Of a stretch of DNA of 64,000 bases, positions 55,017 to 55,214 are shown one piece after another (position 1 is the stretch's first letter; the number at the start of each line of letters is the position of its first letter). A model generated the notes under the pieces. That model did no database searches and had not been told where the DNA came from. It worked only from the letters and a program-made list of their open reading frames with translations. Made by a program: the position numbers and the translations under genes. This DNA is from Escherichia coli 042. GTDB lineage: Bacteria; Pseudomonadota; Gammaproteobacteria; Enterobacterales; Enterobacteriaceae. The stretch lies in NCBI RefSeq assembly GCF_000027125.1, contig NC_017626.1, one strand, 5' to 3'.

Positions 55017-55029
55017 ATTTTTTTCCATC

Positions 55030-55205
55030 AGATATAGCGTATTGATGATAGCCATTTTAAACTATGCGCTTCGTTTTGCAGGTTGATGTTCGTTATCAGC
55101 ACTGAACGAAAATAAAGCAGTAACCCGCAATGTGTGCGAATTATTGGCAAAAGGCAACCACAGGCTGCCTTTTTCTTTGACTCTATGACGTTACAAAGTT
55201 AATAT
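55030..55205 (+). ncRNA. sraB: Possible SraB small RNA (yceF–yceD intergenic region)
   Basis: Established knowledge only: an sRNA has been mapped to the yceF–yceD intergenic region in K-12. Ends are not determinable from sequence; coordinates approximate. Confidence 0.3.
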
Positions 55206-55214
55206 GCGCGCCCT

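Follow-up and report, generated by a model that had tools for sequence, protein, structure and literature searches.

The yceF–yceD spacer of Escherichia coli 042 is very probably an ordinary, intact sraB locus, with IS1397 inserted on the far side of yceF

We find that the spacer between yceF and yceD in Escherichia coli 042 is very probably an ordinary, intact chromosomal sraB locus of Escherichia. The analysis covered a stretch of 64,000 nucleotides from contig NC_017626.1 (assembly GCF_000027125.1), here called the window, to which all coordinates refer unless stated otherwise (Table 1). An initial reading of the sequence alone had proposed that a spacer of roughly 200 bp at this point encodes the small RNA SraB, and both parts of that proposal are borne out. 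The spacer measures 198 bp (55017-55214, from the open reading frame listing and the K-12 MG1655 annotation transferred by collinear alignment), and a whole-window Rfam scan returns a full-length match to the SraB family (RF00077) at 55010-55178 on the plus strand. The match scores 209.8 bits (E = 6.8e-44) against a gathering score of 130 bits and covers model positions 1-169 of 169, which is far beyond chance. The identity of SraB is thus supported by the covariance-model match, synteny with K-12, near-identity to the K-12 sequence, and structural covariation. Each of the features tested for membership of the family (model score, full coverage, synteny, covariation, and a terminator) is present at this locus.

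SraB itself is already known and has been annotated since 2001, and the position of the insertion sequence is the sole departure from the known arrangement. The copy described here is the common E. coli allele of sraB and has little significance. The window adds no evidence on the function of SraB, the one biological question that it touches.

Table 1. Coordinates of sraB, its neighbors, and other features located in the window
Feature	Coordinates	Strand	Basis
Ysr251	2201-2394	-	Rfam match above threshold
tRNA (one)	3769-3853	-	Rfam match above threshold
ES056	9453-9544	-	Rfam match above threshold
ES036 (CssrF)	19639-19681	-	Rfam match above threshold
PyrC leader	28812-28861	-	Rfam match above threshold
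rne	48167-51352	-	ORF listing and K-12 alignment
rne 5' UTR element	51377-51713	-	Rfam match above threshold
rluC	51925-52884	+	ORF listing and K-12 alignment
Target-site duplication GTTT, left copy	52929-52932		K-12 alignment to both sides of the IS
IS1397 (IS3 family), 1432 bp	52933-54364	-	Comparison with K-12; identity to annotated copies
IS1397 orfA	54322 to 53792	-	ORF listing; the two ORFs overlap
IS1397 orfB	to 52965	-	ORF listing; the two ORFs overlap
Target-site duplication GTTT, right copy	54365-54368		K-12 alignment to both sides of the IS
Rest of the rluC-yceF BIME: right half of the split palindromic unit and one intact unit, GCCGGATGCGACGTAAACGCATCCGGC	54365-54431		K-12 spacer comparison
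yceF, Maf-like m7GTP pyrophosphatase, intact (starts at 55016)	54432-55016	-	ORF, annotation
sraB as annotated, 169 nt	55010-55178	+	Rfam RF00077; collinear with K-12 ncRNA sraB b4418
Candidate yceF promoter, CTGCAA-16-TAAAAT	55054-55081	-	Lenient hexamer scan
Candidate -10 for the 55070 start, TAAACT	55058-55063	+	7 nt upstream of the published start
Probable major SraB transcript, ~109 nt, three hairpins	55070-55178	+	Published start transferred
SraB hairpin 1, variable, covarying, loop with SNP 55091	55070-55110	+	Folds, alignment
SraB hairpin 2, CCCGCAAUGUGUGCG core	55120-55144	+	Rfam structure, folds
SraB intrinsic terminator: stem-loop 55149-55173, then UCUUU	55149-55178	+	Folds, Rfam structure
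yceD proximal promoter, TTGACT-17-TAATAT	55177-55205	+	Promoter scan
yceD, DUF177, 23S rRNA accumulation protein (starts at 55215)	55215-55736	+	ORF, annotation
rpmF	55788-55961	+	ORF listing and K-12 alignment
plsX	56042-57112	+	ORF listing and K-12 alignment
fabH	from 57180	+	ORF listing and K-12 alignment

The genetic context of sraB is that of K-12, with yceF on the minus strand followed by sraB and yceD-rpmF-plsX on the plus strand. A divergent yceF and a yceD-rpmF on the same strand as sraB are also shared by 18 other enterobacterial loci, which have rne5 nearby too. Like its K-12 counterpart (1146589-1146757 in K-12 coordinates), the annotated gene overlaps the 5' end of yceF by 7 nt and ends 36 nt before the ATG of yceD. 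From the end of the insertion sequence to plsX, the window aligns collinearly with K-12 at 99.2% identity and without gaps. The encoded neighbors are equally close: YceF (194 aa) carries one change, S37G, and YceD, the product of the gene that heads yceD-rpmF(-plsX), is identical to the K-12 protein.

Within sraB itself, 168 of 169 nt are identical to K-12. Our folds place the only substitution, T to C at 55091, within the five-nucleotide loop of hairpin 1. In the alignment, 54985-55090, which spans both proposed sraB promoters, is identical to K-12, and so are hairpin 2, the yceD promoter, the terminator, and the spacer between sraB and yceD. Relative to the K-12 SraB (pke20, b4418, RF00077), the copy in the window therefore shares site, strand, terminator, and flanking promoters, and differs in that one loop nucleotide only.

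This form of the locus is widespread. Many complete E. coli genomes, O157:H7 and UM146 among them, have the 205 nt from 55010 to 55214 without a single difference; their share is about two thirds in an evenly spread sample of 5424 matching genomes. The C at 55091 is the commoner nucleotide among complete E. coli genomes, and K-12-derived strains carry the minority allele. From the end of the insertion sequence to yceD, the window matches E. coli that lack the insertion, except for ordinary SNPs. Among the matches listed, the SraB match in complete E. coli genomes overlaps only features for yceF and/or yceD, and the K-12 record has an sraB ncRNA; the standard RefSeq/PGAP pipeline seems to leave sraB unannotated outside K-12.

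A different picture is seen in a neighboring part of the window. For the 13 kb at 40000-52932 (flgI-flgL/rne/rluC), the best complete E. coli genome is 99.0% identical, and only 12 of 5425 genomes reach at least 99%. On this comparison, the segment, or a part of it such as rne, would appear to be without a close representative in the genome collection.

Folding recovers the family structure of SraB. The 169-nt sequence adopts the Rfam fold (z = -1.9), and its 109-nt 3' part folds cleanly into three hairpins (-33.1 kcal/mol, z = -2.86). The terminator stem-loop, with its GC-rich stem and U-rich tail, is present in both the minimum-energy and the centroid folds. A simple promoter and terminator scan listed neither the SraB terminator nor the two divergent promoters; an internal mismatch in the stem is probably the reason why the scanner missed the terminator.

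Comparison among species provides evidence that this structure is conserved. One genome per species was scanned with a 19-base pattern for hairpin 2, and this returned 18 enterobacterial loci, each with a full SraB match (150-208 bits). They comprise Escherichia, Salmonella arizonae and diarizonae, several Citrobacter species, and one MAG labelled Raoultella, and our statements on conservation are limited to these. A further 23 matches to the pattern were unrelated chance matches and were discarded. In an alignment of the 18 loci with the window and K-12, 92.8% of the cells pair as in the Rfam structure; sliding the partners by one to three columns lowers this to 35-42%. Across the 18 sequences, six pairs are altered on both sides in a compensatory manner, five of them in hairpin 1. 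Hairpin 2 (100% paired) and the terminator are invariant in the alignment and hence uninformative on structure, and hairpin 2 owes its invariance in part to the pattern by which the loci were selected. On the minus strand, hairpin 2 followed by CTGCTTTATT (55121-55143) fits a simple terminator pattern. Either the resemblance is due to chance, or the hairpin might work as a bidirectional stop that also halts antisense transcription arriving from yceD.

The main SraB RNA is probably shorter than its annotation. SraB starts 60 nt downstream of K-12 position 1,146,589 in all re-analysed E. coli primary-transcriptome data sets, a product of ~105 nt was seen already in the 2001 study, and Salmonella SraB is ~99 nt long (PMC7967276). 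By collinearity, the published start maps to about 55070 in the window, which is the first base of hairpin 1. With a start taken from the literature on other strains, the main RNA would probably be 55070-55178, and the coordinates of the 169-nt annotation probably overstate it by 60 nt.

Candidate promoters can be placed on either strand upstream of this start. The sraB promoter has been termed "poorly defined", and the yceF promoter is described as divergent from it and overlapping with it (PMC7967276). The hexamer TAAACT, a candidate -10 for the 55070 start, is conserved in the alignment (TAAAAT in one species) and has no good -35. On the opposite strand, a lenient hexamer scan, which yields weak candidates only, points to CTGCAA-16-TAAAAT as a possible yceF promoter, consistent with the divergent, overlapping promoters of the published description. 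We therefore suggest that 55010-55069 may be mainly a back-to-back promoter region for sraB and yceF, together with the antisense of the yceF 5' end.

These same 60 nt could also belong to the RNA. That is, the full 169-nt RNA from 55010 might be the functional species, with a 5' part that is antisense to the yceF translation start it overlaps. Both the Rfam model and the K-12 annotation are 169 nt long, a TAAAAT hexamer ends 6 nt before 55010, and 55010-55069 is highly conserved, including a 5' hairpin (55027-55030/55046-55049) with one covarying pair. Yet the yceF start and ribosome-binding region, together with the two divergent promoters, account for the conservation of 55010-55069 just as well. 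By z score, the 169-nt structure also stands out less than the 109-nt one (z = -1.9 against -2.9), and the uniformly downstream RNA-seq start and the ~99-nt length in Salmonella make a functional 169-nt species unlikely. Two 13-codon ORFs inside annotated SraB (55045-55086 and 55064-55105, both on the plus strand) were rejected as small proteins; both begin upstream of 55070, and neither is mentioned in the literature searched.

We propose that sraB would be an independent sRNA transcription unit, divergent from yceF and co-oriented with yceD. Its transcription would come mostly from near 55070 and end at the intrinsic terminator (55149-55178). The product would most likely act in trans as a ProQ-associated structured RNA, with a presumed regulatory mode. 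SraB is among the RNAs most enriched with the RNA chaperone ProQ, with binding shown in K-12 (PMC5393179), and it has served as a model ligand of this protein (PMC7367173). Like the ProQ-dependent structured sRNAs SibB, RaiZ, and the cspE 3'UTR fragments, SraB is heavily base-paired and has a Rho-independent terminator. Extensive pairing with such a terminator is the feature that the FinO domain of ProQ recognises (PMC5393179; PMC7367173). Unlike ProQ sRNAs of the SibB/RaiZ type, SraB lacks a defined E. coli target or regulatory outcome, and no E. coli target is described in the literature searched.

Further information on SraB comes from Salmonella. There, SraB is strongly repressed by ppGpp in late stationary phase (PMC3963941), and sraB has been linked to egg-albumen survival or resistance in Salmonella Enteritidis (PMC3963941; PMC7967276). 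In its drop with ppGpp, the level of Salmonella SraB would resemble that of the neighboring ribosomal-protein operon.

The SraB terminator runs directly into the proximal promoter of yceD. In a strict scan, TTGACT-17-TAATAT is the only good sigma-70-like site in the 2.6 kb from 52800 to 55400. Its -35 hexamer and the U-rich tail of the terminator share sequence (CTTTTTCTTTGACT), and its -10 hexamer is followed by a GC-rich discriminator (GCGCGCCC). Such GC-rich discriminators are typical of stringently controlled promoters. Between the -10 hexamer and the yceD ATG lie 9 nt, and no Shine-Dalgarno motif precedes this ATG. From the terminator to the ATG (55149-55217), the sequence is nearly invariant across Escherichia, Salmonella, and Citrobacter in the 18-sequence alignment. 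We suggest that a strong, conserved promoter of the stringent type, placed right after the SraB terminator, would launch an essentially leaderless yceD-rpmF mRNA.

This bears on one of the effects first proposed for the insertion sequence, for which an action on a yceD-rpmF-plsX leader had been called plausible. Because the proximal -10 ends so close to the ATG, and because a ribosome-profiling paper already takes yceD to be leaderless (PMC4378010), a leader from the proximal promoter is essentially absent. There is practically none for anything to act on, and this part of the proposal lacks support.

The close packing of terminator and promoter raises the alternative that SraB acts mainly in cis on yceD-rpmF-plsX, rather than as a trans-acting sRNA. 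The unit upstream of yceD would then be growth-rate-controlled, its terminator would insulate or occlude the overlapping yceD promoter, and the sRNA would be an attenuated product. Read-through of SraB would supply a leadered, better-translated yceD-rpmF mRNA. Several observations fit this arrangement, namely the overlap of the terminator tail with the yceD -35, the near-invariance from terminator to ATG in three genera while hairpin 1 diverges, and the repression of Salmonella SraB by ppGpp, as with ribosomal-protein promoters. In addition, two yceD promoters are cited in the literature, of which the distal one is possibly the sraB promoter, and the literature searched reports no trans target. 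However, the yceD promoter alone could account for the conservation, and the terminator, with its GC-rich stem and U-rich tail, looks efficient. Furthermore, SraB accumulates as a discrete ProQ-bound species, its compensatory structural conservation fits a functional RNA, and the egg-albumen phenotype in Salmonella Enteritidis is attributed to sraB itself. We thus consider a mainly cis-acting SraB quite improbable.

We hold the corresponding composite element to be doubtful to the same extent. In it, the SraB terminator and the leaderless yceD promoter would form a single unit, and SraB transcription and termination would tune yceD-rpmF-plsX in cis by occlusion, insulation, or read-through. 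If true, it would give SraB the function that has been lacking since 2001, in an operon that couples ribosome and lipid synthesis, and the insertion sequence would play no part in it. A trans-acting, ProQ-associated SraB remains the reading that we prefer.

Judged by the anatomy of the locus, IS1397 would be poorly placed to affect sraB. The sequence-only reading had put the insertion about 70 bp beyond yceF, which is accurate: 67 bp separate the IS end (54364) from the yceF stop codon (54432-54434). It had also described the sRNA as immediately downstream of the IS, which is overstated, given that the whole of yceF lies between them, leaving 645 bp between the IS and the annotated SraB 5' end, or 705 bp if the RNA-seq start is used. 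The read-through or promoter effects on yceF and SraB that it considered plausible find no support in the layout of the locus. The transposase is co-oriented with yceF, with its transcription heading toward the 3' end of rluC and away from both yceF and sraB. As the IS lies 3' of yceF with its transposase pointing away, read-through can pass from yceF into the IS but not from the IS into yceF. A transposase-promoter-like site in the left inverted repeat (TGAACT-17-CATAAT, 54364 to 54336) likewise faces away from sraB. yceF, its adjacent REP hairpin, sraB, and the yceD promoter are all unchanged by the insertion.

Insertion sequences are known to activate neighboring genes, and IS1397 could in principle alter the expression of SraB or yceD-rpmF-plsX in cis by an outward promoter, by rluC read-through across the IS, or by local topology. 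A lenient scan picks out two weak plus-strand sites inside the IS end that faces yceF, TTGAAA-15-AATGAT (54224-54250) and TTTACT-16-TAAACT (54291-54318). Both match at 8-9 of 12 positions with non-optimal spacers (15 and 16), and neither passed the strict scan of 52800-55400, which found no strong outward promoter toward sraB. Before it reached sraB, a plus-strand transcript from the IS would have to traverse an intact REP hairpin and then some 600 nt of untranslated sequence antisense to yceF. The IS also splits the REP hairpin after rluC, and rluC read-through may rise in consequence, but to reach sraB such a transcript has more than 2 kb to cross. Long untranslated antisense RNAs are the usual substrates of Rho-dependent termination. 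As typical substrates of this kind, plus-strand transcripts derived from the IS or from rluC would be expected to end by Rho before sraB. Effects of a 1.4-kb insertion on supercoiling or nucleoid proteins are conceivable. Given also that SraB and yceD have their own conserved promoters, we judge a cis effect of IS1397 on either of them to be very unlikely.

Thus, our expectation would be that IS1397 has no cis effect on SraB or yceD. More plausible local effects would concern the 3' end of rluC, with its split REP hairpin, and transposase expression through read-through from yceF.

The element itself is IS1397, and every defining feature tested is present. It is 99.9% identical over 1441 nt to copies annotated as "IS3-like element IS1397 family transposase". 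Its two overlapping ORFs have an A7G slippery or frameshift site at ~53841, where the RefSeq annotation of homologous copies gives a "programmed frameshift". The terminal inverted repeats match at 21 of 25 positions. An automated repeat search did not report these repeats, and the ends of the element were set by comparison with K-12 and direct inspection.

IS1397 is specific for insertion into REP/PU sequences (PMC1525189), and the target in the window is of this type. Positions 2445-2448 of the K-12 locus (L001) align with both flanks of the IS, and the copies of the GTTT duplication lie in the loop of the palindromic unit GCCTGATAAGGCGTTTACGCCGCATCAGGC. The insertion point is in the loop of this REP unit, at GCCTGATAAGGCGTTT^ACGCCGCATCAGGC, and precise removal of IS1397 would restore the uninterrupted target GGCGTTTACGCC. 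In size, overlapping ORFs with the A7G site, 4-bp duplication, and central PU loop target, the element is the same as known IS1397. It differs from other IS1397 insertions in its exact insertion point, which occurs in none of 5426 complete E. coli genomes.

The same rluC-yceF BIME (the region of window 52897-54431) has nevertheless been entered elsewhere. Four of the 5426 genomes carry IS1397 within it, at two other positions, and three of these four were inspected. The insertion in the window is in the first palindromic unit, with the duplication GTTT. In O78 strain 3 (locus L002, 1218-2650), the element is in the first palindromic unit as well, 2 bp further on, with the duplication TTAC. In JNE12-007 (locus L044, 1218-2650) and the pig isolate HCP5S3_I2 (locus L045, 1218-2650), it is in the second palindromic unit, with the duplication AAAC. 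The fourth genome, a second pig isolate (H31, LCP30S3_I5), has a match identical to that of HCP5S3_I2. All three inspected insertions share the orientation of that in the window. The insertions in the rluC-yceF BIME are independent events at a favored target between convergent genes. The BIME is a repeat landing site of IS1397, and its position between convergent genes shows why insertion there is tolerated.

A probable trace of repeats of this kind was also seen in one of the 18 SraB loci. In a Citrobacter locus (L024), 10396-10478 on the minus strand matches naRNA4, a REP-derived nucleoid-associated RNA, at 60.8 bits against a threshold of 59.5 bits. The match is ~600 nt upstream of SraB and, from that distance, probably lies in the spacer beyond yceF and reflects a REP cluster.
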